Assembly: GCF_001447785.1 (NCBI RefSeq)
Contig: NW_015167060.1
Span: 1,367,473 to 1,431,472, forward strand
Source of the DNA: Gekko japonicus
Lineage: Eukaryota
Length of the DNA: 64,000 nt
Direction: 5' to 3'
The stretch's first letter is position 1, and every line of letters begins with the position of its first letter. Position numbers and translations under genes: made by a program. Below are positions 6,252-64,000 of the stretch, in pieces. Below the pieces are notes generated by a model. It was not told the origin of the DNA. It worked only from the letters and a program-made list of their open reading frames with translations, and searched no databases.

Positions 6252-9200
6252 TGCATTGGGGCCACACAGAGCACCACCATCACCACCACCCCTGGTTCTT
6301 GTTTACACAGACTGTTTCCAATTCAAATAATAATATTTTTCTCTGACATATACCTGACCAGGGCCAAAATGGGATTCTTATTCATGCTTACATGATTTCA
6401 GGACTACTGCCGCTGGAGCTCCTGGCCTTGGCCTAGCCAGTCTTTTCCTGCCCTACCTAGAACTGGCCACTTTTCTTCTTTGCCCTGCACAGGGTCCATG
6501 TCCACCGCGGCATACGGTTGTTTCCATGAGCTTCTGCACCAAGTCCTTGCAGCCACCTAATGGATCCTATCTCATCACCTTTCCCGTCTCTGCTCTGCAG
6601 TTTCTCAGATGGCCAGAAGAGGGCACTGTGCATCACTCCCTTGCTGAGTCAGCCCTCCACCCACTGGTCCCATGTCAGCCAGATGTGCGCTGACACAGAC
6701 CACTCACTGCAGCTAGAAGAGAGAGGAAGGCAGGAACCAGAGAGCTCCCAGGGAGCCAACCTGCCAGGCATTGCACCCCGCTCACGTCTGGCTGCCGAGT
6801 GTAGTAAGGTACTGCAGCTAATTTACGTGGGGAAGATAAACGGCGCCATAACGCTCCGGTTATTACCCCTCAGCACTTTTACAGCGTTGCTGGCAATTAA
6901 TTTAATTAAAACCCCTGTCCTGGATATAAAGGCATTTCATAATTCACTGATTTAACAACTCTCACTCCCCCCCCATCCCAGCCCCCACCTCTGTTGCCGG
7001 CAGCTCAACCAGGGGGCATCTGGATCCAACAAACACTCGCGCACACACGCGTCTGCACACAGAGAGAAGTCTGTATACCTGCCAATCAGACAATCCTGCC
7101 ATAAAATATTCACTGGTGGCAAGCATGCTGCTTTTTGTACACAGAATTCATACATACTACGTGTTGGAAACACATACTGTAGTCTTCACCCATGTCCACT
7201 GAGGTGTAGTATACCAAAAGGGACACATTAAAAATAGAGCATGGAGCATCTCAGCACGTATGAGCACATGAGGTACTGTGTAGGCCAGCCATTGAAAGAG
7301 AGATAAAAATCCAAGTACATTGCAATCCCACCAAATGTGCACATGGGATCCAAAAGCATACCTGACATGGGCACACAGCTTTGCCCATAGCCACTCCATT
7401 CACACCTCGAACACCATGACAGTAATCCTGAATTGCGCAGCCTCCTCTGGTCCTACAGAAACATATCCTGTGTATCTGCCTGATCCACCTACTGCTGGGC
7501 TACTTACCTACAGGCAGGAACATCATCTTATTGGGAACAGCTTTATTTATTCCATTTACTCCCCTCCCCAACACATTATGGCTATAAAGCGCAATATGTC
7601 CTTTTCCTTCCACTCACCAGCCAAAGGTTTCTTGTGTCTGGCACAGAGAAACAGCACCTGGCAATGCAAGAGTGTGTCTGCAGAGCCCTGCGCTTTTAAT
7701 CCCGCCATGCGAAGTGAATTTAGCAGCCTCTAAAATTGGGCATTCAGCTTTGTCACAAAAACTAATGCACACAATCTAGCACAGAAGCACGAGCAATAGT
7801 CCCTGGTAGAAGAAATTCTGGAGCGGGAAGTTATGCAGGGGTTGAGAATTGGGGATAGCAGGTGGGGTGGGACAGAACACAAGCGAGAGGGGCTGGGAGA
7901 CAGTGTGACAGTGAAACCCAGAAATAAAAGCTCAGGACGCTTCAGGTTGGTGTGATACTGGCAAGCACTGAGTGTTGTCCATAAGCTGGTGTGGGATAGA
8001 AAAGGTTTATGGGATGAGGCGCATTTGCAGTGCGGTGTGTATGGAAGCACACAGCTGGACTTCTGGAAAGGTGCTGAAAGGTCAGGATTGAGAGATATTG
8101 GCAGAGTTTGCAGGGTGGGAGGGAGGGAAGGAGGACAATCAGGTGCTGGACAAGACAGGAATGATGTGCTGGGACGCTGCATTGCCGTGGTCAAACGGCA
8201 GACTGCAGAGTATGTATGTTGTCACCAGGAAAAGGATGGCTTTTTCTCCTCTGCCAGCTCATCTCTGTTGAATTATGCTTTTGATGGTTATACCCGTGAC
8301 CCTCATTGACTAAGGTCTTGTCTATATCTGCGGTGGAATAAAACGGTAAAATCTAATGGTGGCAGAGTGGAATGCATCATTTCAAACTGTAGGCAGAGGG
8401 GCCCACATTTTTAAACGCTCCCCTGATTTTAAACATTTGATGCAAGTGGGGGGGGGGTTGTACCCTGCTGAAGTCCCTCCCCTCCACAAACCCCACCCTT
8501 CTCAGGTTCCACTCCCCAAATCTCCAGGTATTTCACAAACCAGAGCTGGCAACCCTATGCATTGGGGCCACACAGAGCACCACCATCACCACCACCCCTG
8601 GTTCTTGTTTACACAGACTGTTTCCAATTCAAATAATAATATTTTTCTCTGACATATACCTGACCAGGGCCAAAATGGGATTCTTATTCATGCTTACATG
8701 ATTTCAGGACTACTGCCGCTGGAGCTCCTGGCCTTGGCCTAGCCAGTCTTTTCCTGCCCTACCTAGAACTGGCCACTTTTCTTCTTTGCCCTGCACAGGG
8801 TCCATGTCCACCGCGGCGTACGGTTGTTTCCATGCGCTTCTGCACCAAGTCCTTGCAGCCGCCTAATGGATCCTGTCTCATCACCTTTCCCATCTCTGCT
8901 CTGCAGTTTCTCAGATGGCCAGAAGAGGGCACTGTGCATCACTCCCTTGCTGAGTCAGCCCTCCACCCACTGGTCCCATGTCAGCCAGATGTGCGCTGAC
9001 ACAGACCACTCGCTGCAGCTAGAAGAGAGAGGAAGGCAGGAACCAGAGAGCTCCCAGGGAGCCAACCTGCCAGGCATTGCACCCCGCTCACGTCTGGCTG
9101 CCGAGTGTAGTAAGGTACTGCAGCTAATTTACGTGGGGAAGATAAACGGCGCCATAACGCTCCGGTTATTACCCCTCAGCACTTTTACAGCGTTGCTGGC

Positions 9201-10694
9201 AATTAATTTAATTAAAACCCCTGTCCTGGATATAAAGGCATTTCATAATTCACTGATTTAACAACTCTCACTCCCCCCCCATCCCAGCCCCCACCTCTGT
9301 TGCCGGCAGCTCAACCAGGGGGCATCTGGATCCAGCAAACACTCGCGTGGTGGCAAACATGCTGCTTTTTGTACACAGAATTCATACATACTACGTGTTG
9401 GAAACACACACAGTAGTCTTCACCCATGTCCACTGAGGTGTAGCATACCAAAAGGGGCACATTAAAAATAGAGCATGGAGCATCTCGGCACGTATGAGCA
9501 CATGAGGTACTGTGTAGGCCAGCCATTGAAAGAGAGATAAAAATCCAAGTACATTGCAATCCCACCAAATGTGCACATGGGATCCAAAAGCATACCTGAC
9601 ATGGGCACACAGCTTTGCCCATAGCCACTCCATTCACACCTCGAACACCATGACAGTAATCCTGAATTGCGCAGCCTCCTCTGGTCCTACAGAAACGTAA
9701 CCTGTGTATCTGCCTGATCCACCTACTGCTGGGCTACTTACCTACAGGCAGAAACATCATCTTATTGGGAACAGCTTTATTTATATTCCATTTACTCTCC
9801 TCCCCAACACATTATGGCTATAAAGCGCAATATGTCCTTTTCCTTCCACTCACCAGCCAAAGGTTTCTTGTGTCTGGCACAGGGAAACAGCACCTGGCAA
9901 TGCAAGAGTGTGTCTGCAGAGCCCTGCGCTTTTAATCCCGCCATGCGAAGTGAATTTAGCAGCCTCTAAAATTGGGCATTCAGCTTTGTCACAAAAACTA
10001 ATGCACACAATCTAGCACAGAAGCACGAGCAATAGTCCCTGGTAGAAGAAATTCTGGAGCGGGAAGTTATGCAGGGGTTGAGAATTGGGGATAGCAGGTG
10101 GGGTGGGACAGAACACAAGCGAGAGGGGCTGGGAGACAGTGTGACAGTGAAACCCAGAAATAAAAGCTCAGGACGCTTCAGGTTGGTGTGATACTGGCAA
10201 GCACTGAGTGTTGTCCATAAGCTGGTGTGGGATAGAAAAGGTTTATGGGATGAGGCGCATTTGCAGTGCGGTGTGTATGGAAGCACACAGCTGGACTTCT
10301 GGAAAGGTGCTGAAAGGTCAGGATTGAGAGATATTGGCAGAGTTTGCAGGGTGGGAGGGAGGGAAGGAGGACAATCAGGTGCTGGACAAGACAGGAATGA
10401 TGTGCTGGGACGCTGCATTGCCGTGGTCAAACGGCAGACTGCAGAGTATGTATGTTGTCACCAGGAAAAGGATGGCTTTTTCTCCTCTGCCAGCTCATCT
10501 CTGTTGAATTATGCTTTTGATGGTTATACCCGTGACCCTCATTGACTAAGGTCTTGTCTATATCTGCGGTGGAATAAAACGGTAAAATCTAATGGTGGCA
10601 GAGTGGAATGCATCATTTCAAACTGTAGGCAGAGGGGCCCACATTTTTAAACGCTCCCCTGATTTTAAACATTTGATGCAAGTGGGGGGGGGGG
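6152..10694. repeat. About 2.3-kb tandem duplication (6152-8457 and 8458-10694)
   Basis: Near-identical copies with scattered SNPs and an indel of about 70 bp (7040-7115 absent from copy 2); junction lies in a poly-G run. Confidence 0.92.
6810..6955. promoter_or_regulatory. Candidate conserved non-coding element/enhancer (second copy 9116-9261)
   Basis: Non-repetitive, rich in TAAT/ATTA (CAATTAATTTAATTAAAA), GATAA, retained CpGs; conservation not tested. Confidence 0.5.
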
Positions 10695-12360: not shown

Positions 12361-13545
12361 TAGTTTATTTATTTATTTATTAGTTTGATTTATATCCCGC
12401 CCCCCCAAAGGCTCAGGGCGGCTCACATGTGGCAAAGCCGAGTGCAAAATACAATACACCATACAACAAACACAACATTTAAAATCAGAATAAAACCTTC
12501 CAATGGTATGGTGCTATGCCTATATTAATCCTCCAAGATGGGAACAACCCCCCCAGATTTGGTGGCCAGCTGTCTCAGTAGCGTGGTCTCCCACTACACT
12601 GTCTCGAACTTCTGCCTGGGCCCGCTTGCCCCCGTTTTTATAGGGCAGCCAATGACTTGCCACCTCGGTGGTAGAATAGTGGCGGCGGCGGCTCCTACTC
12701 AAACGCCTGGTGGAAGAACTCCATCTTGCAGGCCCTGCGGAACTGCATAAGGTCCCGCAGGGGCCAGATCTCCTCTGGGAGCTTGTTCCACCAGGTAGGA
12801 GCCGACACCGAAAAATGCCCTGGCCCTAGTAGAGGCAAACTTAATCTCTTGGGGACCTGGCACTCCGAGGAGGTGGAGATTCCCCAATCGTAGTGCTCTT
12901 GAGGGAACATACGGGAAGAGACGGTCCTTCAGGTAAGCTTAATGTCAGTGCCGTGGCAGGCGCGCGCGAGGGTGGGGTTTCCCCCGGGCCCCGATTTTGC
13001 GGGAGTGGAAAGCGGGGCTCGAAAGCGGGGGGGGGAAAATCCGCCCCCCGAGGGCATTTGGCAGCCCTAGGTAAGCTGGACCCTGGCCATTCAGGGCTTT
13101 AAAGGTGAGAACCAGCACTTTGAAGTGAATCCGGTATGCTATCGGCAGCCAGTGCAGCGCTTGCAGCCCAGGCCGAATATAGTCTCGCCTAGAGAGGCAC
13201 AACAACAACCTGGCCGCAGCATTCTGCACTAGCTGCAGTTTCCGGATTTGTGACAGAGGCAGCCCTAAGTAGAGAGCGTTACAGTAGTCAAGCCTCGAGG
13301 TGACCGTCGTGTGGATCACAGTGGCCAGGCCTCCACGATCAAGGTAGGGAACCAACTGCCGGGCCAGCCGCAGATGATAAAAGGCCGCCTTGGCAGTGGC
13401 TGCTACCTGGGCCTCCATTGTCAACGAGGAGTCCAGGAGCACCCCCAGACTCCTAGCCTCCCGGTGAGGCACCAATGGTACCCCGTTGAAGACCGGGAGT
13501 GGGAGCCCCAACCCCAGACCGGTCCGACTTAGGCCCAGTATGGAC
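12361..13545 (-). mobile_element. Young 5'-truncated L2 LINE (ORF2 C-terminus, 3' UTR, (TAAA)n tail), interrupted at about 12940-13069
   Basis: ARSLGVLLDSSLTM..TSRLDYCNALYLGLP..KLQLVQNAAARLL..LHWLPI..RIHFKVLVLTFKALNG.GPAYL; GGTAAGCT duplicated around the inserted segment. Confidence 0.92.
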
Positions 13546-14642
13546 GTAACTTCCCACTTTCCCTTATACCATGGTCCCAATCCATAATGAATCCCCCACA
13601 TGCCTGTTAATTGAAAGTCAAACATAATCTAGGTGCTCTGGACACAAAACTCCCATCATCTGGTTTGGCCTGGAGGGATGTGGGAACACGGGTAGAAAAA
13701 AGGAACAATTGGAGCAAAACTGGGAAGCAGAACTAGAAACCAACACTGTCGGCAGGGAGAAAGTGGGCAGACAAAGGAAGGTTGGAGAGTTGGGGACTTG
13801 AGCCAGGGAGCATGTGGGAACTAGGCCTAAGGCCCTGAGTGGAGCAGCATTGTGACCTGGCAACCCTAGAAAGGCAACATGGGCCAAAAAAAGGAGGAGA
13901 AGAAGAGAGGCTGACCATGCCATTATCTGTGCTAGTCATCTGAGGCTTATCAGTGCTTTGAAAAAACACAAAATGAATCAAATATTCTAGTCTAAAGAAA
14001 GCTTCCCTTTATAGTCACCTGGAGGAGTTTCTTACCTCAGGTGACCAGCAGCATGCTGGTTTACAAACCTCCCTTATGTACTTCACTTATACCCGACCTT
14101 TCTCCCCAAAGGGGACCCAAAGCCGCTTACATCATTCCCCTCTTCCTATCCTCCATTTTATCCTGATAACAACCCTGTGAGGTAGGTTAGGCTGAGAGAG
14201 TCTGACTGGCCCAGCAAGCTTCCATGGCAGAGTAGGGATTCGACCCTGGGGTTACTGGTTCCTAGTCTGACACTCTAGCTACTACACCACACTACCTCTC
14301 TCTCTGTGAATGTTTACACCCTGTTTTTCCATGGTAAAACTCCTCAAGGTAGTTTGCAATCTTTGGGGAAAAAATGGCTAAAACTTGAATAAAAACAGTC
14401 AACAATAAAAATTCAAACTTTTAGCACTACAAGCAACAATAAAAACCCATAAAAGTTAGTTACTATGAAAACCTCAAGGGAACAGGATGGACTTCGCTGG
14501 GCACCTCAGTGATACTAGCAATGGTTCCTCACAAATCTGCCTGGGGAAGGATTTCAAAAGCTGGGATACCAACACAGAAAAGGCCCTCACTCCAGCAGCT
14601 ACCTTTCCTGCTTCTGAAGGCACCTGGAGAAGGTCTCAAGAC

Positions 14643-14849
14643 CAGTGTTCCCTCTAAGCTGAGTTAGTGTGAGCCAGCTCACAGTTTTTTAGCCTCCGGC
14701 TCACACATTTTTTGTCTCAGCTCAGGAAGGATGGCTCCAGAGCAAACTAACTTATGCAGGAGCCAAATCGCTCCCTCACAACTTTAATGCCAGCAGCTCA
14801 GAAAGTAGAACTGTTGCTCACAAGACTCCACAGCTTAGAGGGAACGCTG
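14643..14849 (+). mobile_element. hAT MITE (CAGTGTTCCCTCTAAGCTG family)
   Basis: TIR of about 19 bp; 8-bp TSD CTCAAGAC. Confidence 0.9.
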
Positions 14850-22761: not shown

Positions 22762-22790
22762 TACACTACAGTAATGAACTGGGTGGAAAT

Positions 22791-23201
22791 CAGTGTTCCC
22801 TCTAAGCTGAGTTAGTGTGAGCTAGCTCACAGTTTTTTAGCCTCCTGCTCACAGATTTTTTTTATTTTCTATAATTTATTTATTTGACCTTACATTCATT
22901 CTTTAGATTCTCTTCTTGCCTCTTTGAACAAACCCAAAATAAATTTTGCTACTGGAACTGTAATAGCTGGATCATAACCACTGAGCAAAAATTGGAGCTT
23001 TCTTGCTACAGGCATGTCTATATTGGGAATTAACGGATCAATCACCTGTGTTCTTTTTTTTTTTTGTCTTCACTCAGGAAGGACAGCTCCAGAGCAGACT
23101 AACTTATGCAGCGGCCAAATCTCTTGCTCACAACTTTAATGCCAAGAGCACACAAAGTAGAATTTTGGCTCACTAGACTCCACAGCTTAGAGGGAACATT
23201 G
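22791..23201 (+). mobile_element. CAGTGTTCCCTCTAAG hAT MITE with a LINE tail inserted in its poly-T
   Basis: TIRs intact; TSD GTGGAAAT / GCGGAAAT; about 200 bp longer than sister copies. Confidence 0.85.
22856..23053 (-). mobile_element. 5'-truncated LINE 3' end (ORF2 C-terminus, possibly RTEX clade)
   Basis: Minus frame reads QVIDPLIPNIDMPVARKLQFLLSGYDPAITVPVAKFILGLFKEARRESKE*, followed by a (TAAA)/A-rich tail. Confidence 0.6.
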
Positions 23202-26667: not shown

Positions 26668-26958
26668 TGAGAGCCAGTTTGGTATAGTGGTTAAGTGCGC
26701 AGACTCTAATCTGGGAGAACCGGGTTTGATTCCCCACTCCTCCACTTGCACCTGCTGGATGACCTTGGGCAAACCGTAGTTCTGATAAGAGCTGTTCTCG
26801 AAAAAGAACAGTTTTTGTCAAGAGCTCTCTCAGCCCCACCTACCTCACAGGGTGTCTGTTGTGGGGAGGGAAAGGGAAAGGAGTTTGTAAGCTGCTCTGA
26901 GACACCTTTGGGTAGTGAAGGGCGGGGTATAAATCCAATCTCCTCCTCCTCCTCCTCC
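26668..26958 (+). mobile_element. Squam3-like SINE
   Basis: Full head to (TCC)n tail; highly similar to 750-1040. Confidence 0.85.
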
Positions 26959-32825: not shown

Positions 32826-33108
32826 AGAAGAAGAAGAAGAGAAGAGATTGGATTTATACCCCGCCCTTCACTACTCAGAGCGGCTTACAAACTCCTTTCC
32901 CTTCCCCTCCCCACAACAGACACCCTGTGAGGTGGGTGGGGCTGAGGGAGCTCTTGACACAAACTGCTCTTTTTCAAGGACAGCTCCTTATCAGAGCTAG
33001 GGCTTGCCCAAGGCCATCCAGCCAGGTGCAAGTGGAGGAGTGGGGGAATCAAACCCGGTTCTCCCAGATTAGAGTCCACGCACTTAACCACTACACCAAA
33101 CTGGCTCT
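32826..33108 (-). mobile_element. Squam3-like SINE
   Basis: Reverse complement of the 750-1040 family. Confidence 0.85.
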
Positions 33109-33687: not shown

Positions 33688-34228
33688 TTCTGTTTTTCTT
33701 TTGCCATAATGCTCTAGGACTATTGGCATGTACGTACATCAGTGTGCCACAATGTGGGCACACGGCACACCCTTTCACAGGAAAACAGTAACACAGGTAA
33801 GAAAAGACTGGTTAAGCCACTGCATGTCCCACCTTCCTCTCTTTTACGGATCACTGCTGCGCTTCCTTTCTCTCTGGGACAAAGTGATGTTAATTTGGGC
33901 ATGAGGGGAGAACACGTTCTCCTTCAGTGGGGGGGGAAGTTATCCAGGAAGTGGTTTAGTTTCTGTTTTTCTTTTGCCATAATGCTCTGGGACTGGCATG
34001 TACGCACATCAGTGTGCCACAATGTGGGCACACGACACACCCTTTCACAGGAAAACAGCAACACAGGTAAGAAAAGACTGGTTAGGCCACTGCATGTCCC
34101 ACCTTCCTCTCTTTTACTGATCACTGCTGCACTTCCTTTCTCTCTGGGACAAAGTGATGGTAATTTGGGCATGAGGGGAGAACAAGTTCTCCTTCAGTGG
34201 GGGGGAAGTTATCCAGGAAGTGGTTTAG
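33688..34228. repeat. Tandem duplication of about 270 bp (33688-33958 and 33961-34228)
   Basis: Two copies of TTCTGTTTTTCTTTTGCC...GGAAGTGGTTTAG with several substitutions and small indels. Confidence 0.9.
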
Positions 34229-37465: not shown

Positions 37466-37948
37466 GGAGAACAAGAGATTGGAATTATACCCCACCCTTT
37501 ACTACGTGAAGGAGTCTCAGAGTTGCTTACAATCTCCTTTCCCTTCCCTTCCCCTCCCCACAACAGACACCCTGTGAGCAGTGTTCCCTCTAAGCTGAGT
37601 TAGTGTGAGCCAGCTCACAGTTTTTTAGCCTTTGGCTCACACATTTTTGTCCTAGCTCAGGAAAGATGGCTCCAGAGCAAACTAATTTATGCAGTAGCCA
37701 AATCGCTGGCTCACAACTTTAATGCCAGTTGCTCCCAAAGTAGAATTTTGGCTCACAAGACTCCACAGCTTAGAGGGAGCATTGCCTGTGAGGTAGGTGA
37801 GACTGAGAGAGCTCTTTCATTAACTGCTTGGGAGATAACAGCTCTGAAATAACTTGTAACTGACCCAAGGTCACACCAGCAGCTGCATGTGGAGGTGTGA
37901 GGAATAAAACCCAGTTCTCCCAGATTAAAGTCTGTGCTCCTAACCACT
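37466..37948 (-). mobile_element. Squam3-like SINE split by a hAT MITE
   Basis: SINE halves are contiguous once 37579-37784 is removed. Confidence 0.8.
37579..37784 (+). mobile_element. CAGTGTTCCCTCTAAG hAT MITE
   Basis: 8-bp TSD CCTGTGAG. Confidence 0.9.
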
Positions 37949-44220: not shown

Positions 44221-44507
44221 AGAAGAAGAAGAAAAGAGATTGGATTTATACCCCGCCCTTCACTACCCAAAGGTGTCTCAGAGTGGCTTACAAACTCCTT
44301 TCCCTTCCCCTCCCCACAACAGACACCCTGTGAGGTAGGTGGGGCTGAGAGAACTCTGACAGAAACTGCTCTTTTTCAAGGACATCTGTGCCAGAACTAC
44401 GGCTTGCCCAAGTTCATCCAGCCAGGTGCAAGTAGAGTAGTGATTAATCAAACCCGGTTCTCCCAGATTAGAGTCTGCGTACTTAACCACTACACCAAAC
44501 TGGCTCT
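44221..44507 (-). mobile_element. Squam3-like SINE
   Basis: Reverse complement of the family consensus; (GAA)n tail. Confidence 0.85.
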
Positions 44508-54679: not shown

Positions 54680-55281
54680 CAGGGATCTCCAACATGGTGT
54701 CTGTCATGGTGGCTGCTGACACCTTTTTTGGCACCCGCCAAGTATTTTTGGTAGGGTTCCCAGCCTCCAGGTCCCAGTGGGGTTTCCCCTGCTTTTGAGG
54801 GCTTTGGGAGCCCCCACCTCCAAACAGGGATATTGCTGCACAATGTCCCTGACGCGATGATGTTGCCTGAGAGTGACATCATTGTGTCACTGATGTTGGG
54901 GGTGACACTCTAGGGTCTTTTTTGCAAACTCTATGGTTTTGAAGGCAAAAAACCATAGAGGTTTGCCAAAAAACAAGAGCGTCACCCCCTGACGTAGGCG
55001 ACACAATGATGTCACCCTAATTTTTAGGTGGGTTTTTTACCCAGCAAGGCTTCTGATTGGCCAATGGAGATTTGATTGGCTGTGCAGTTTCTTAAAAATG
55101 TTGCTTTGGCGGCAGCTGCCACTGCACCACAAGGATTTTCACTGTGTGACTGAAGGTAAGCTGTGACAGACATTTTGTGGCTGCCTCCACCTCCTGCAGC
55201 AGCTATTTTGTGAATGTGCCCAGCACACTGTGTCAGAATGCCAAATGTACCCAATGGGCTCAGAAAGGTTGGGGACCCCTG
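54680..55281. mobile_element. hAT-Charlie-like MITE with a nested TAGGG element (about 54752-55019)
   Basis: TIR CAGGGATCTCCAAC / GTTGGGGACCCCTG; 8-bp TSD TGCTAGAG. Confidence 0.85.
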
Positions 55282-55320
55282 TGCTAGAGACTTACTTTTT
55301 AAAAAATGAAAACTGGGAAT

Positions 55321-55578
55321 TAGGGGTCCCAAATCCCTCCGGGGGGCGGAATTCCCCCCGGTTTCGAGCCCTGATTCCGGCTCCCGTGGAATCGGGGCCC
55401 GGGGGAAACCCCACCCCCATGCGTGCGTCACCCGGAAGTGACGTCACACGCTGGGGGAGGGGCGACGCCATTTGAGGGGAAAACAAAGAGTTTCCGAGTG
55501 ACGCAAGCAGGGCGCGCGCACGGGCGGACGCCGTCCGGGAGCCCCCCGCTCCCGGACGAATTTCATTTGGCAACCCCA
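55321..55578. mobile_element. Young CpG-rich TAGGG-family hAT MITE
   Basis: TAGGGGTCCCAAAT / ATTTGGCAACCCCA termini; 8-bp TSD CTGGGAAT. Confidence 0.85.
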
Positions 55579-55795
55579 CTGGGAATTCGTAGAACATGCT
55601 ACACATATTGTTATAACATAATGTTGGTATAACAACATTCAATTGCTGATTTACAAAAACACACCTGGAAAAAACCTGTTGGTGATGTGAGAGGGGGATG
55701 AACCCTGCTGACAGATCAGGACAGAGAAACTATGGGGAATCCTGCCATGTGTTGGCAGCTGTAGCAGTGACAAAGAAAATACACATACCTGTCCC

Positions 55796-56109
55796 CAGGA
55801 CTTTTTTTGTAGAAAAAGCCCAGCAGGAACTCATTAGCATATTAGGCCCCACCCCCATGCCTTCCCTTGGCTTGCCCGGGTGCCCCGTGGTAAGCCAGCC
55901 CTTGGACAGGCCGGGAGAGGGATTTAAATGTATCCCTGTTCCTTGCNNNNNNNNNNNNNNNNNNNNNCGGAGTCGCGGGGGGGGGGAGTCACTCTCCAGG
56001 CCTTCCCTCTGTAGCCACGCACACAGAGGTTTTGGCTGTAGTAGGGGTGGCCAACTCTGAAGCCAGTCGGAACTCCGGTCCTGTGCGTTCCTGCCCAAAA
56101 ATAGCCCTG
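55796..56109 (+). mobile_element. CAGGGCT-family hAT MITE
   Basis: 8-bp TSD CCTGTCCC; homologous to 3120-3514. Confidence 0.85.
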
Positions 56110-56559
56110 CCTGTCCCTGTGTGACAAACACAATGCAGTTAAGGGAAAGGGTTCTAAGTTTACAGTTTTCCTGACATAGGATTGCCAGTTTTGGCTTTGG
56201 AAGTTCCTGGGGATTTCTTTGGGAGTGGTTTCTGGGTTGGAGAGGGAGCCCAGTAGGGATATGATCCCATAGAGTCCATCTTCCAAAGCTGCCATTTTCT
56301 CCAGGAAACCGATCTCTGTAGTCTGAAGATGAGTAGCAATTCCAAGAGTATCCTATACCCCATCTGGAGGCTACCAGCCTGACATGCTAGTTTTGTGTGT
56401 TTGTTTTACTAGAGGAACATGCATTCAATCACATGTACCCTGCACTTGCAAAATGAAGAAGTACACTCCAGAAGCAGTCTTACCACCCCTGTCTAGGCCT
56501 AAAATGTCTTACTACATACTGACCCCCACATACACCATAAGGAGGGTACTTTTAAGGAG

Positions 56560-56945
56560 TGTTGGATGTTACAAGTTAAAACACTTCAGTATTTACTGGG
56601 TTAATGATGCTTGTTAAGTCACATGTTTGTTTGTAACCAATCTATTTAGATTATAGGATGCCTGGGAACTTTGGAGCTAGTTTGTTACTCTGATTGGAAA
56701 CGAAGGTGTCAAGTATTAGCATTTTATGGCTTCTCTTCCCTTCTGTGTGTTTCTTTGTTTTGACTAGAGAAGAAGACGCCATTCCGGCTCTTTAGATGTA
56801 AGGATGTAGGCATATAAGCTCTTTGTTGTTTTATATCCTGTGTACCCTTTCCCATGTTAGGTTTATAGTAAACTTTTATATTTTAATACACACCATGGAC
56901 TCAGTCTCTTAATACTCTGCTGAATTTATCAAAATAATTCCAACA
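56560..56945 (+). mobile_element. Solo LTR, diverged family-A relative
   Basis: TGTTGGA...TCCAACA; 5-bp TSD AGGAG; collinear with 18363-18825. Confidence 0.85.
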
Positions 56946-58102
56946 AGGAGCTACCAGAAGGGGCCATGCTCACAGAAGGCTGAAGTACCTTGTCAAATGC
57001 CCTCCTGAAGCTGCTTTGAATCATAGTGGGGTGGAAGAGGAAGCAATAATATCTTGAAACATATCACGTAAGCAAAAAGGGGGAAGATCTGGCATGGCAC
57101 AGTGGATAGAGTGTTGGACTAGGATCTTGAGAGACTCAAGTTTGAATCTCCACTTCTGCCATGGGAGCTCATGGGGCTGGTCACAAACTCTCAGCCTGGC
57201 CTACCTCACAGGGTTGTTGTTGTGAGAAAATGGAAGAGTGGAAAGCAATGTTCCAAGCCTCTTTGAGTCCCAACTGCGGAGAAAAGCAGGATATAAATAA
57301 ATGAACACAAAAATGCAAGATCCTAGGTGTGGAGGAGAAATACAGAGGAGAAATTGAGCAGGTGTCTGTTCCAAACCCCTGTGTGGTAGACCTTCAGGTT
57401 TATCTACAAAGGGAGGGATTTTAAAGCCAAATATGAAGAACAGATGTAGCAGTGTTATGTTTCCCCTACAATGCGGCTGATGGCTCTTTCACATAGTAAG
57501 GAGGGCCATCCCACAACCCCCCCCCCCACCATTGGCAAAGAATGGGCTGATGGAAGAACAAAATCAGAAACAGAACTTCCTCCGCCCAACTCCTCCTTTT
57601 TACATCCGTCCCATGTCTAGAGCAAGAGCCCAGGTGCCATATCTAGCTAATGCATTTTTAATCCTGCCCTGCTGTTAAGGAGCTCCTGACACTCCTTGCT
57701 GTGCTTACCTCTAGAGCTATTTCTCATTTGTACATCAACATGAAAAGGCATTGCATGTGTTTTACAAAACAGATACAAGCCAAGTAACTGAACGTGGCAG
57801 AGCAAACACCCCCAGAACTAAGACAGAACCCAGGAGGAGTCCTGAGTCAGCCTCCAGTGCATTAGGCACCACACCTAGCCAGAGCCAGGGTCCATGAGTC
57901 ACAGTCCTACCATCTCAAGCCCACTCATCTGAGTCCCCTCCCAGAGGGTGCAGATGGCAGCTCTACACTTCTTCGCAAGCATGCTGAGGGGACTATACCA
58001 GATGAGATTATCAGAAAATTAATGAGGGGCAAAGAGACCTAAAGTATGTGCTCTAATAGTGCAATCCTATGCTGAGTTACTCCAGTCTAACTGCATAGAA
58101 AA

Positions 58103-58339
58103 TAGGGTTGCCAGGTTCTCCTGGCCATGGGGTGGGGGTGCCCGCTCTAGGTTGGGAAACTGGTGGAGATTTTGGGGGTGGAGCCTGGAGGGGGGGGACT
58201 GGGAACTCAGTGGGGTACAATGCCATAGAGTCCAGCCTCCAGAGCATCCATTTTCACCAGGGGAACTGATCTGTGCATTCTGGAAATGAGTTGTAATTCT
58301 GGGGGATTCCTGGGCCCCACCTGGAAGCTGGCATCCCTA
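58103..58339. mobile_element. TAGGG-family MITE (others at about 54088-54285, 56177-56380, 58809-59015 and 42870-43040)
   Basis: TAGGGTTGCCA...TGGCATCCCTA termini; shared GGAACTGATCT core. Confidence 0.75.
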
Positions 58340-58449
58340 GACTGACATAATTCTGCCTAGGATTGTTCTGGAAATATGCTAAATTCATTTATCTTGGGTG
58401 TGTGTGGGGGTGAATTTGTCCTGGCAGATAAAAGATGAGCCATTATGGC

Positions 58450-58515
58450 CAATGTTCCCTCTAAGCTGAGTCAGTGTGAGCTAGCTCACACTGACTCAGC
58501 TTAGAGGGAACACTG
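58450..58515. mobile_element. 66-bp palindromic mini-MITE derived from the CAGTGTTCCC family
   Basis: Palindrome with one mismatch; TSD ATTATGGC / ATTGTGGC. Confidence 0.85.
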
Positions 58516-59299
58516 ATTGTGGCACTTGTCTCATTCTGAAATTATCTTGCTAACAGAACAACTGTGCCTCGCAAAAAAAACAAAAAACAGTGAGCATCTT
58601 TTCAGGCTCTCTTTCCTTTAGCACTGGGGGGAAATTGCTGTTTTGATTTTTTAGGGTCCGCCTTTTGACATGGCCTAGTCTGTGATGGTCCACGTGAACC
58701 GCCCTTTGTATGAAAAGGTGAGGACAGGTAGGAATGTCACACTGCCACTTTCTTGGGTGGGAGCTTAGACATAAGGATGGGATTTTGATCTAAGGGGAGG
58801 GGTGATGTTAGGGGTGCCAGCTTCCAGGTGGGACTTGAGGATCCCCCAGAATTACATCTCATCTCCAGACTATAAAGATCAGTTCCCTGGAGAAACTGAT
58901 GCTTTGGGAGTCCCTGTCCTCGCTCTGTCCTCAAATCTCCAGGAGTTTCCCAACCTGGAGCTGGCAACTCTGCCCCCCATCCCCTGCCAGTGGCCAGGGA
59001 GGACCTGGCAATCCTTGAATGTAGGGAGAAAAGTAAAGAGAGTGAGAATTCTGGAAAGGGGCTGGCAAGAAACAGGCTGGAGGAAAGGCTGCAGGTGCTG
59101 CTATTGCTGATGGAGTTTTGGGGCTAAGCACTGCCTGTGTTCTTGGTTGGCTTGCTTCCTGCCTGTTCTACCTGCATGCTAGCAAATAAACAGATCATCA
59201 CAAATCTCCAGCATTCTTTCCTCACAAGAGCACCCAAAGCTTCTTCTGGAACATCCTGCAGTTCACTGAAGAGTGGAGTGTGAAACATTATGCCCACAG

Positions 59300-60120
59300 A
59301 GACGTCTTGAAAAAGATTAGACGTCCCTAAAATATTTTCTTACCATTGCAATGGGTATTCTCCTGCCCACATGGGTTTCCCTCATAATTGTTTCACACCT
59401 TAGACAGGCTTCTGTTACATTATCTGTGCCCTCTTCATGCCATTGATTCTGCATGAACCACCGCTCACATCCGTCACACCTGGGCCAAGATGCTCTGGTG
59501 GAAGGTCTTGGCTGGCAGTGCTGGAATGGTGCCCACCAGCCAGTCTGAAGCCAGGAGCAGCAAAGGGGTGGGGAGGACACATCAACCATGAAGAGGTTTA
59601 CAAAAACTCTGCTCACTCTGTCTTACTTCCTGCTTGGAGCAGTCCTCCGGAACGTCAAGCCAAACAACCTCATGGTTAACTGCTTCTGAATCACCCACTG
59701 AATGTGAATCTGTTTCTCCAAGAAATCCCTCAAGGGCCCAAATTGACACATTTTTCTCTCTGTGGTATGGTTGTCACAACAGATCTGCTTCCTGGAGTCT
59801 TGGACTACGTGGGCAACCAAAGAAAGTGGCACTTTTACATGCCACCAATGCAGAGCGGGAACTAACCACAGGGAAGCAATATTGTAGCAGTATCTGTATA
59901 GCCGAGGTCATGTATAAATTGGGCCAGACATAACACACCTGCCAAATTCAATTCAGAAATTGATAGGGCATGATGTATTGCTTCCGTCCGAACAGCCCCC
60001 AAAGAGCTGCCTGTCAGGGGTAAATGAGGCCCACCCAGAATGGAATTAGACATGACCAGGTGCTTAATTTCCAAAAAGAGAGATGCCAAGGCTGAAGCCT
60101 CCTTGGATGCCATTGCATCC
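59300..60120 (-). pseudogene. Decayed Ulp1/C48 protease plus PHD finger coding remnant, probably from a DNA transposon
   Basis: Frameshifted motifs ILLP..HW/HF..DS, DCSKQ....SRVFVNLFM and FQHC..WPRCDGCERWF(H)..CLRC. Confidence 0.5.
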
Positions 60121-60419
60121 TATGCCTTGGAAGCTCTGCTTTTCCCTCCTTCGTGTCTGGGAACCAACTATAGTTACTTATTGATGAAGGAAAGATGCTC
60201 TGCACATGCTCAGATATGCTTTTCTTCATTGTAACTTCAAAGGACTCCGCTCTGGGGTTGAAAACTGATTTGGAGACTGGCTGAGCCCCGACAGAAATTA
60301 AGCCCTGGTCAGATGTCACGTTTGGCCTTCATGCCCTAAGCTCATTGTTCAGTCCACTTATAGGGACATCAGAGTTACACCCTTCTGTGCCCAATGATTC
60401 CAATGAAAGGGGGTAACTC

Positions 60420-60905
60420 TAATTTGATTTGATTTATTCGATTTATAGCCTGCCCTCCCTATGTCCAGGCTCAGCGTCGGTGACATCATTAATAAAGCAT
60501 ATTAATCTAATACATTAATAATTCTAAATAAAATAAATCCAGTAAATATAATAAAATAAAATACAATCCAACAATACAGTTAAAAGATGGCATAAAATTG
60601 CAGGGGGGGTGATTTATAATCTGTCTGATATGAAGGGGGGGAAAGGGGGAGGGGAGAAGAGCAGGAGGCTAGAGATGGACATCTGTTGCTGCCCTCAACC
60701 ATAAACCCAGCAGAACAACTCTGTTTTGCAGTCCCTCTGGAATTGCATTAAATCCCGCAGGGCCTGGATCTCACCCGGAAGAGTGTTTCACCATGTAGAG
60801 CCAGGGCAAGCCGGACACTCTTTGGGCAGGGATCACCAGCAGATTTTGATCACTTGAGCATAACACTCTTCTGGGGGGGTATACCAGGAGATGTAATCCC
60901 AAAGG
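60420..60905 (-). mobile_element. L2 3' fragment
   Basis: Homologous to 12361-12900 (3' UTR and ORF2 end). Confidence 0.65.
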
Positions 60906-61304
60906 ATGGGACTGTTAATTTCTTATCCACTATCAGAATAAATCTGTCTACTTTCCCTCCATTTCAGGCACAGTGTGTCACGCGGTCTCTTTTGATGTCA
61001 CACTCCTTGCCTGTATGATTTATTTAAAACATGTCTATACCATTTTGGTACATAGGACAGAAATGTAGCATATAAATAATTTAAATAAATAAAATCTTGC
61101 CCAGGTGCCCAACCGGAGCGGCCTTTCTCCCTCTACCCGTTTCCTCACTCCGGCCGCTTGGAGGAGCTGGGGACTCTTTTCACACAGTCAGTGCCGTTCT
61201 CGCATGGCTTATGCAGTACTTCTTGCTGCCAGACGCTGCTAGGCCGAGGGAGCCAAGCTGAGTTCTACTCATGAGGCTGAAGTTGGTTCCCAGCCTCCTG
61301 TTGT

Positions 61305-61450
61305 ACACACAATAAATTGCAGGGCCAAGTACTGATTAAGTCAGTGATTGTTATAAATGAATTTGTCAGTGGCAGTTTTGCATCACAATGGAATTTAGCT
61401 AATTAAGTATTTCAGCTGATAACACTTCTCCCATTACATGCAATTAGCCA
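61305..61450. promoter_or_regulatory. Candidate CNE/enhancer
   Basis: ACAAT (Sox) twice, TGATTAA, CTAATTAA, CAATTAG, TTTTGCAT/ATGCAATT POU-like motifs. Confidence 0.5.
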
Positions 61451-61897
61451 GCACCAGAGGCTGGAAAGATCTATGCGAGGCCCCCCTTCCAACCACAAGT
61501 GAATGGCTGGGTTGGGCTACGAAAGACCACCCGGAAACCCCTAAAATGGAGGTCGTGTTCAGCACTTGCTGGGACTTTTGCCTTAAAATGTTCAGATCCC
61601 ACTGCATGGCACAATGCCAAAGCAAATGTACTTAATGAGAACGAGTATTGTGGGGCATTTATATTTATTCACTTCAGTTATCTCCTGCCTTTTTTCTCAG
61701 TGAGGACCCAAGGCAGCTGACTTCAGGCTTCTCTCCTCCATTTTATCCTCACAACAATCCTATGAGGTAGGTTAGGCTAAGTGTGTGTGACTGACCCAAA
61801 GTCACTCAGCAAGCTTGCATGGCAGAGTGTGGATTTGAACCTGGGTCTCCTAGATCCTAGTATGAGAGTCTAGCCACAACACCTCACATCCCTCCAT

Positions 61898-62847
61898 TGT
61901 TACTGAGTGAGGAGGCCATTGATCTCCTGTCTTGTAGTAACTAGTTACTTTGAACTCGTTGATCATAGGGTGACTAACTTGTGAACCCACCCCATAGCTA
62001 TATCCCTTTAACAGCAGTTTGATCTGTGTGAAGAAATGCATTTTCTCCTGGAGGGAGGCTGGCAAGCAGCAAGCTTCCACTTAGTGTTTTAAAAGGGTTC
62101 CCCCTACCCCCACCCCGCTGGGAGGGTGGAAGTCCATCAATGACTTTCCAGGCACACCTCTAAAGAAATGGTAATAGAGACAATGGGAGGCTCAGACTTC
62201 CCCCTTCTCCCCCCTCCCCTCTTCAGGCAGAGAGAAGAGGTGTGGAGGTGTAAAATGCTAGATAGGCTTCAGGAAGCAGCTTCCTGGAGGCAACAGGAAA
62301 AGAAGCCTTGACCTGGGTTGACTGGTGTTAAGTGGGCGGAGATAAAGAGTTAATAAAACTTCCCTGCAACAGCAAACAGCTCTTTTTTCTTGGGAATGCT
62401 TGGATGAGGAGGACACTGTTCTGGTCTGCAAGCATGTGGCCATTGAACATGTGGCTGGCCTGGGAGAGCTGGGGCAAGGTTTGAAGGTACTGGGAACTCT
62501 GTGGAGAGTTATAAAAGCCTAGTGCCTGACTACCATCGAGACAGCCTACTGCTTTGTGTGCTTCTGGGGAATGCTGCTTGCCAACCGCTCCCTGGAGCTC
62601 CCTTTAGAATAGCATGTCCAAACTGGTTGGAGGTCTATGTGGTACAGAGAAGTACTACCAGCATCATAAGTTTAAGGTATTTATTTAAAAGTAAGTGTTC
62701 ACAAGCATACTTTTAAGCATAGCACCAGATCTGAGCAAGGGAAAACAAAAGAAGTTGGAAGGAAATGCAAATCCTCTGTCCCTCTGTTATACATGCCCTA
62801 ACTGATGGAAAAATAGGATTGTGCTTGCTCCATGCCATGAAAGTTTA
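61898..62847 (-). mobile_element. Probable solo LTR, family C
   Basis: Homologous to 27520-28338; TGTTAC at the left boundary; TSD not evident. Confidence 0.5.
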
Positions 62848-63680
62848 CCTTCTGATTTTTGCAAATGTTAAATATCTTAGGAAATAAGCCAGGTTACCCC
62901 CATATTCTTTCTGAACTATAGACCTGGTCACTAGATTATGCAGGCACCTTCAAATGGAAAGCCCACCCATGACATCCTGTGCCAACTAGATAGCTAGTGG
63001 CTGTGGCTTAGCTTTGGACCAAGTCACAGCAGCGAGGACTGAGGCCAGTGCTGTCCCAACAGCTCATCATATGCATATGCCCAATAAGGAGCTGAACTCC
63101 AATTTCTGCTTCCTACTGAACTTTCTTAGACCTAGTTCTTACTGAGATGGTATAGCCATATCTGTGCTGTACCACTTCAGAATGCAGGTAGCAGCTCATC
63201 ATAACTGAATGCTCCACTAGAATACCAGGGAGAAGGTGAAGCCAGATCCCGCCTTCCTAGTATTTAGTTGTCTTTCTGGAGGGAACCAGAGGGGTAGTCA
63301 TTGTTTATCTGTTACAGCAAAAATAAACAGAAATCTTACAGCGCCTTAAAGATTAGCACATTTTTATTACAGCATCCCCTTTTATGGACTGGAGGCCACT
63401 TCTTTGGCTGTTACTCAACACCATGTGCGGGAATAAAAAAACGTTAGTCTTTCAGATGCCACAAGACTCCTGTTTATGTGGAGGGTTGTGACCAGCTATG
63501 TCCTTGAAACTGAAAACAGTAGGCACTGTGACTCCTGGGATCTATCTAAACTCCCCTGCTCATCTTAGGTGACACAGTGAAGAAGGGCTCACCTCTTTAT
63601 CCATGTGTCTTTGCATGGTTTAGCTCCTGGGTTCACACTGATCTTCTGCCCTCTGCTGGCTGTACCATTCCTCTTCACTA

Positions 63681-63966
63681 AGAGCCAGTTTGGTGTAGTG
63701 ATTAAGTGCGCGGACTCTAATATGGGAGAACCGGGTTTGATTCCCCCACACCTCCACTTGCACCTGGCTGGATGACCTTGGGCAAGCTATAGTTCTGATA
63801 AGAGCTGTCCTTGAAAAAGAGCAGTTTCTGTCAAGAGCTCTCTCAACCCCACCTACCCCACAGGGTGTCTGTTGTGGGGAGGGGAAGGGAAAGGAGTTTG
63901 TAAGCCGCTCTGAGAGACCTTTGGGTAGTGAAGGGCGGGGTATAAATCCAATCTCCTCCTCCTCCT
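63681..63966 (+). mobile_element. Squam3-like SINE
   Basis: Full head to (TCC)n tail. Confidence 0.85.
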
Positions 63967-64000
63967 TGACACTGGCTTTCCTTCAAAGACCACATCTGCT

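Follow-up and report, generated by a model that had tools for sequence, protein, structure and literature searches.

Introduction

The systems closest to the locus described here are DNA transposons that carry an Ulp1 protease and a PHD finger as accessory domains. In the available text of PMC2836005, Ginger1-9_HM has an Ulp1 domain followed by a PHD finger at the C-terminus, one of the 16 Ginger1 families listed there having both domains, and Mutator/MuDR transposases with Ulp1 and PHD are described from hydra and lancelet. The same source, in which Bao, Kapitonov and Jurka (2010) proposed a role for the two domains in transposition or repair, also records Ginger1-derived genes in Anolis. Relics of Ginger1 have been reported from alligator, turtle, coelacanth and frog and, by alignment, from human (PMC9004415, in its available part), and Peptidase_C48 domains have been captured by Helitron-like elements (PMC11417382, in its available part). 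Ulp1 occurs as a passenger in several superfamilies, so the presence of the cassette does not by itself identify the one that carried it.

Zisupton (KDZ) elements, too, reportedly carry an Ulp1 protease, as is said to have been described by Bohne et al. in 2012, and to our knowledge none has a PHD finger. The available portions of two Zisupton texts (PMC12730594, PMC12062965) do not mention Ulp1, and the available text of PMC4350176 confines Zisupton, among vertebrates, to teleosts. For squamates, we found no report of an Ulp1+PHD DNA transposon in the open literature, as far as its texts were available, subscription journals lying outside the scope of the survey.

An earlier interpretation of a 64,000-nt stretch of Gekko japonicus DNA (the whole of which we call the window), made from the letters alone and referred to below as the sequence-only reading, proposed that positions 59300-60120 hold the remnant of a large DNA-transposon lineage, with Ginger1 (Ulp1 and PHD) and Zisupton (Ulp1) named as known carriers of such domains. 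Its statement that Ginger1 elements carry Ulp1 and PHD accessory domains agrees with what has been published (PMC2836005, available text). Here we analyse the locus itself.

Results

Layout of the minus-strand motifs

Six-frame translation located all the motifs of the sequence-only reading on the minus strand at 59395-59891, with the letters and in the order that had been reported, and distributed over three frames. The features are as follows.

59317-59891, minus: whole putative relic, a C48-like core and then a C-terminal PHD-like finger (motif chaining and forced alignment; lone copy in the window)
59871-59891, minus: TATILLP, a hydrophobic-Pro motif 23 nt ahead of the candidate His; weak alone
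59794-59850, minus: HW-x15-DS (HWW..VVQDS), candidate catalytic His and Asp at the spacing of natural cores
59713-59736, minus: PLRDFLEK, a possible helix in the interval from Asp to Gln, resembling an exon of the intron-split Ulp1 genes L001, L023 and L049
59615-59662, minus: Trp-x9-Gln stretch in a different frame, with the candidate oxyanion-hole Gln at 59632
59590-59613, minus: SRVFVNLF, candidate site of the catalytic Cys-Gly motif, with Ser for Cys and Arg for Gly
59515-59526, minus: FQHC, candidate first PHD ligand pair, first Cys missing
59455-59487, minus: WPRCDGCERWF, candidate PHD core, the strongest signal
59444-59455, minus: candidate PHD His (CAT GCA GAA), one base off frame, then Ser at the expected Cys (from a reading of the letters)
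59395-59406, minus: CLRC, candidate last PHD ligand pair, in a frame that ends at TAA 59317-59319

The proposed reading path costs at least five frameshifts, and the site of the catalytic Cys is separated from the PHD by only 29 codons. Having lost its catalytic Cys and two of its zinc ligands, and with so many frameshifts in the way, the locus is unable to encode a working protease or a working finger. Neighbouring open frames of such length are no rarity, 16 being counted among 5240 pairs. Positions 59892-60120, which had been counted as part of the fossil, gained no support as part of a protein in frameshift-aware profile tests or with hhalign.

A decayed PHD-like finger

The core of a PHD finger follows the pattern W-x2-C-D-x-C-x2-W-F. 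Matches to W-x2-C-D-x-C-x2-W-[FY], as found at the locus, were absent from all 600 simulated Markov windows, and the analytic expectation is 1.1e-4 per window. When textbook motifs were chained in a frameshift-tolerant manner and compared with fourth-order Markov windows as nulls, the locus reached a PHD chain score of 76, the next best in the window being 50 and the reversed and complemented windows giving 43 and 42; none of 400 nulls attained 76 (mean 52.6, maximum 71; Gumbel P 3.1e-4). Six of the eight C4HC3 ligands are visible (five Cys in frame, the His one base off), and the off-frame His and the last Cys pair sit at finger-like spacing. The first and sixth ligands are absent, the sixth position being Ser, and the aromatic residue expected two positions before the last Cys pair is missing. 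The stop comes 25 codons after the PHD and, because it closes the CLRC frame, the finger would be C-terminal.

Among the databases, only the PDB gave leads. A PDB sequence search returned four matches, to proteins whose domains we take to be PHD3 of KDM5A (E 0.053), PHD3 of KDM5B (E 1.2) and the CW-type finger of ASHH2 (E 2.8), and to an unrelated protease (E 0.76), the finger matches being confined to ligand positions. No PHD or C48 model of Pfam was matched by six read-through frames, by 23 pieces and flanks or by three readings across one frameshift, and a single-sequence AlphaFold model (pLDDT 44) was uninformative, with no Foldseek match at E 0.001. We consider it very likely that the core is of PHD origin, and a decayed finger is well supported; this origin is probable and short of proven, because the motifs were picked with the sequence already known and many families could catch a reader's eye.

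A marginal Ulp1/C48-like signal upstream of the finger

Ahead of the finger, the candidate His (59850) and Asp (59799) lie in one frame, 17 codons apart. For comparison, natural C48 genes were collected by scanning GTDB for a DNA pattern, which yielded 71 loci; 26 redundant rows from rhizobia were left out, 30 had no full single-frame core and 15 were used. The His-Asp spacing is 17 in 15/15 of these cores, as it is in the window (the fetch filter permitted 15-19), whereas the Asp-Cys spacing is 62 codons in the window against 42-59 in the natural cores, 12 of which also have a Pro 6-7 residues ahead of the His. The Gln lies 19 nt ahead of the Cys site, and the His-Asp-Gln-Cys motifs, taken over three frames, have a P of 0.003-0.25 depending on the test. 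At the Cys site itself the minus strand reads AGC AGA GTT TTT GTA from 59613, with a Ser codon instead of the catalytic Cys; such a loss is expected in a fossil, and the locus is not a working member of C48. The HW-x15-DS pattern occurs three times in the window against 0.13 expected, two of them by chance at unrelated places.

In general searches this signal was weak. Pfam PF02902 (Peptidase_C48) gave no match up to E 10 in raw frames, in pieces or across one frameshift, while the control loci L033 and L056 matched it at E 1e-38 or better, and four PDB searches returned no SENP. A chain of textbook C48 motifs left the locus outside the top four on its strand, and a frameshift-aware C48 profile search left it outside the window's top five. 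The combined C48+PHD chain scored 134 and was reached by 0/400 nulls; its P of 3.3e-4 is the same as that of the PHD alone (3.1e-4), so the C48 chain, whose share of 58 (by subtraction) is under the null mean of 76, adds nothing to the whole-window test. Over the 500 nt that precede the PHD, a local C48 profile stayed at background in all nine settings (373-1126 of 2000 nulls), mostly aligning the wrong part of the model. Forcing the whole C48 core through the same 500 nt gave a score reached by 95-247 of 3000 nulls (P 0.03-0.08) and by 11-30 of 463 real window tiles, along a path that hits the ILLP, HW, LRDFLEK, Gln and VFV sites in order. Shorter forced cores were reached by 115-769 of 3000 nulls, by 257-397 for the TATILLP part and by 1136-2783, which is background, for the part from the Gln to the C-terminus alone. 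With hhalign, three pieces gave P 0.27, 0.0086 and 0.46 at probabilities of 0.1-4.65%, the SRVFVNLF region, aligned across one frameshift, having the P of 0.0086 and the probability of 4.65%.

The best-fitting C48 profile was one made from four intron-split Ulp1 sequences. When forced, it was reached by 12 and 35 of 4000 nulls and by 3 and 5 of 463 tiles; applied locally, by 100 and 405 of 4000 nulls, with a tile range of 3-55/463 over all settings. The overall P of 0.003-0.1 is optimistic, because one exon pattern was defined after its likeness to PLRDFLEK had been noticed, and the profile was made only then.

Simulated decay helps in judging these values. The locus has a C48 score of 3.7, and real C48 DNA decayed by 35% substitutions and 5 indels has medians of -2.3 to 6.8. 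With 25% substitutions and 4 indels, held-out C48 DNA was still recognised in 32-54 of 60 trials; with 35% and 5 indels, this fell to 6-26 of 60. As heavily decayed C48 DNA is so seldom detected and scores much like the locus, neither the negative results nor the signal are decisive. The intact PHD core suggests a decay under 35%, where canonical C48 scores 23-43 bits, so that a divergent C48 subfamily must be assumed. None of the 71 fetched C48 loci has a PHD motif within 1.5 kb, and a GTDB scan with a C48+PHD DNA pattern returned nothing. From the sequence, then, a C48 domain directly upstream of the PHD is plausible, its significance marginal.

The scan also drew attention to eight contigs from GTDB bacterial bins (L001, L010, L013, L012, L023, L049, L054 and L070) with intron-split, eukaryote-like Ulp1 genes beside transposase-like frames, L001, L010 and L013 being 99% identical copies on three contigs. 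These contigs are probably host DNA that was wrongly binned with bacteria. Besides the integrase core of L012 (below), the frames beside Ulp1 in others of them are, by their motifs, presumably Mutator-like and Sola-like; they have no Pfam match.

Relatives, flanks and ends

No database match fell under E 0.05 anywhere. Word-based protein searches produced 434, 29 and 1 candidates, of which not one reached E 10, phmmer over 1.84 billion representative proteins returned 0 at E 0.001, and tblastn against plasmids and phages gave only E 7-8. Within the window, 59016-60712 has no second copy at E 1e-4, the best match of 59016-60430 being at E 0.26; a 28-nt inverted match between 59816-59843 and 58731-58758 (E 0.26) was set aside. 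Two unrelated repeats lie on either side of the locus.

58809-59015, no strand assigned: unrelated interspersed repeat, the downstream border of the single-copy stretch
60713-60802, minus: 3' fragment of LINE-like type, unrelated to the relic and sharing 75% identity with 12713-12803; it lies upstream, in the place expected of a transposase

Going by motifs, the second of these is presumably of L2 type, together with other LINE-like remains at 12945-13628 (minus strand), which contain a 227-codon frame with no Pfam match at E 0.001.

Pfam scans for a transposase covered 60200-61700 and 61900-63700 on both strands and 57300-59300 on the minus strand, and gave no relevant match. The Gypsy-type integrase of Ginger1 (H2C2, DDE, GPY/F) had no Pfam match at 60200-61700 or 61900-63700, the KDZ transposase and CxC domains had none in the flanks, and we found neither a MULE transposase nearby nor long inverted ends bracketing the locus. 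The window has 169 stop-free frames of at least 82 aa; in the 150 that were scanned, Pfam recognised only a reverse-transcriptase fragment on the plus strand at 1203-1649 (RVT_1, E 1.1e-7). Eight natural frames neighbouring the fetched C48 loci had no match above null in the window; the integrase core that lies upstream in L012 (Pfam rve, E 1.6e-14) gave at best 28 bits, on the opposite strand, a value reached by 10/60 nulls. Ginger1 ends (TGTNR, TIRs of 40-270 bp and a 4-bp CCGG/CCGT duplication) were sought in 55001-64000, where no exact end-plus-target pattern occurs and old ends may have decayed. The target duplication is 8 bp long in Zisupton and about 9 bp in Mutator. No tRNA or Rfam match was found. 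A C48-like word at 61231-61184 (minus strand, 22.4 bits), 1.6 kb upstream, is chance, 12/60 null windows reaching the same score.

For the attribution to a large DNA-transposon lineage, Ginger1 or Zisupton, the window offers no transposase, no terminal repeats, no target duplication and no further copy. The absence of a significant C48 or PHD match in Pfam scans crossing at most one frameshift, and of a paralog within the 64 kb, goes halfway to the refutation that the sequence-only reading set for itself.

Several other repeats were seen in the window. A 66-nt near-perfect palindrome at 58450-58515 (97%, without a spacer) is probably a small non-autonomous element, its halves being found again at 14642-14683, 22788-22831 and 37579-37619, and a repeat of ~285 nt at 63681-63967, 26670-26953, 32831-33108, 751-1033 and 44236-44507 (copies 90-93% identical) is probably a young SINE. 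At 7114-10693 there is a large local duplication, in which the 163-codon open frame at 7730-8221 is repeated without change at 9966-10457; it may reflect a recent tandem duplication or an error of assembly. Two tandem 270-nt copies, 95% alike, occupy 33688-34228 and contain a 219-codon open frame with no Pfam match.

Discussion

We favour, with moderate confidence, the interpretation of this stretch as the dead 3'-end relic of a DNA-transposon gene that encoded an Ulp1/C48 protease and then a C-terminal PHD finger, of the Ginger1/Mutator kind. It probably resembles the tail of a Ginger1 or Mutator element, and we assign it to neither superfamily. Judging from these families, the ancestor would have formed the C-terminus of a protein encoded by a cut-and-paste transposon. 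In the live element, a protease with a His-Asp-Cys triad and a Gln in its oxyanion hole may have cleaved SUMO or ubiquitin off the transposase, chromatin or repair factors; the PHD finger may have bound histone H3 tails and so acted as a chromatin tether. The transposase half would since have been deleted, displaced by later insertions or decayed past detection. If the first codon of the Cys site was TGC, the change from Gly to Arg would be a transition of the CpG type, which methylated DNA undergoes more often than any other change.

An unlikely alternative, which shares with this interpretation a genuine PHD finger, is that the C48 motifs are chance and that the finger came from another mobile element whose other parts were lost, for example the ORF1 of a CR1/L2 LINE. 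PHD fingers are common in CR1 and L2 ORF1s, although the exclusively vertebrate subgroups have an esterase ORF1 (both from the available text of PMC4120745). The window does contain LINE remains (RVT_1 at 1203-1649), yet the same strand downstream of the locus (57300-59300) has no RRM, endonuclease or reverse-transcriptase match; and the C48 signal is marginal or absent in most tests, yet forced alignments hit the same sites in order.

That everything is chance, motif-like words put together across the three frames of unremarkable intergenic sequence, we judge distinctly unlikely. The PHD core and chain went unmatched in 600 and 400 nulls, the chain collapsed on reversal and complementation (43 and 42 against 76), and the spacing of the off-frame His and last Cys pair is that of a finger. 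Such an origin would nonetheless agree with the lack of any database match under E 0.05, with the frequency of long adjacent open frames (16/5240) and with the two further HW-x15-DS patterns in the window; the motifs were, moreover, chosen after reading, and anyone who looks for many families in many windows will come upon events as rare as 1e-4.

Highly improbable, finally, is descent from a host PHD-finger gene, KDM5-like or other, by way of an old processed pseudogene or a duplicated exon: the best PDB matches are indeed host KDM5A and KDM5B fingers and the locus is single-copy within the window, but these matches are weak (E 0.05 or worse, ligand positions only) and a recent pseudogene should have shown in the phmmer search, whose library, by its description, contains vertebrate proteins. 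We know of no vertebrate SENP gene with a PHD finger.

If the transposon relic is real, the fossil record of Ulp1+PHD DNA transposons gains one more amniote lineage, the architecture itself (PMC2836005) and Ginger1 relics in turtle, alligator and frog (PMC9004415) being already known, as the available texts state. A lone dead fragment makes no open question testable, and its value is only as a probe for intact copies. It is very doubtful that an undescribed Ulp1+PHD transposon family was once active in this reptile lineage, that its protease has diverged too far for Pfam and is missing from protein databases, and that younger, or even intact or domesticated, copies exist elsewhere in the genome; were this true, it would offer a vertebrate system in which to ask whether the SUMO proteases and histone readers of transposons act against silencing.

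Among known systems, the host PHD3 fingers of KDM5A/KDM5B and the host SENP/Ulp1 proteases share with the locus the ligand pattern and the His-Asp spacing, the similarity being limited to motif residues at E 0.05 or worse. Zisupton (KDZ) is set apart by the lack of any KDZ or CxC match near the locus. The intron-split Ulp1 genes L001, L012, L023, L049 and L054, from eukaryote-like contigs in GTDB bins, provide the best C48 fit and adjoin transposase-like ORFs, but they differ in having introns, an intact triad, no PHD motif within 1.5 kb and neighbouring ORFs that find no match in the window. Mutator/MuDR elements have both accessory domains in common with the putative relic and differ from it in that the locus has no nearby MULE match or long inverted ends. 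Compared with Ginger1, by description and not by sequence, the window is without a Gypsy-type integrase, TGTNR ends with a CCGG/CCGT duplication (in 55001-64000) or copies, and the catalytic Cys is lost; with Ginger1-9_HM, the locus shares the C-terminal order of Ulp1 followed by PHD.
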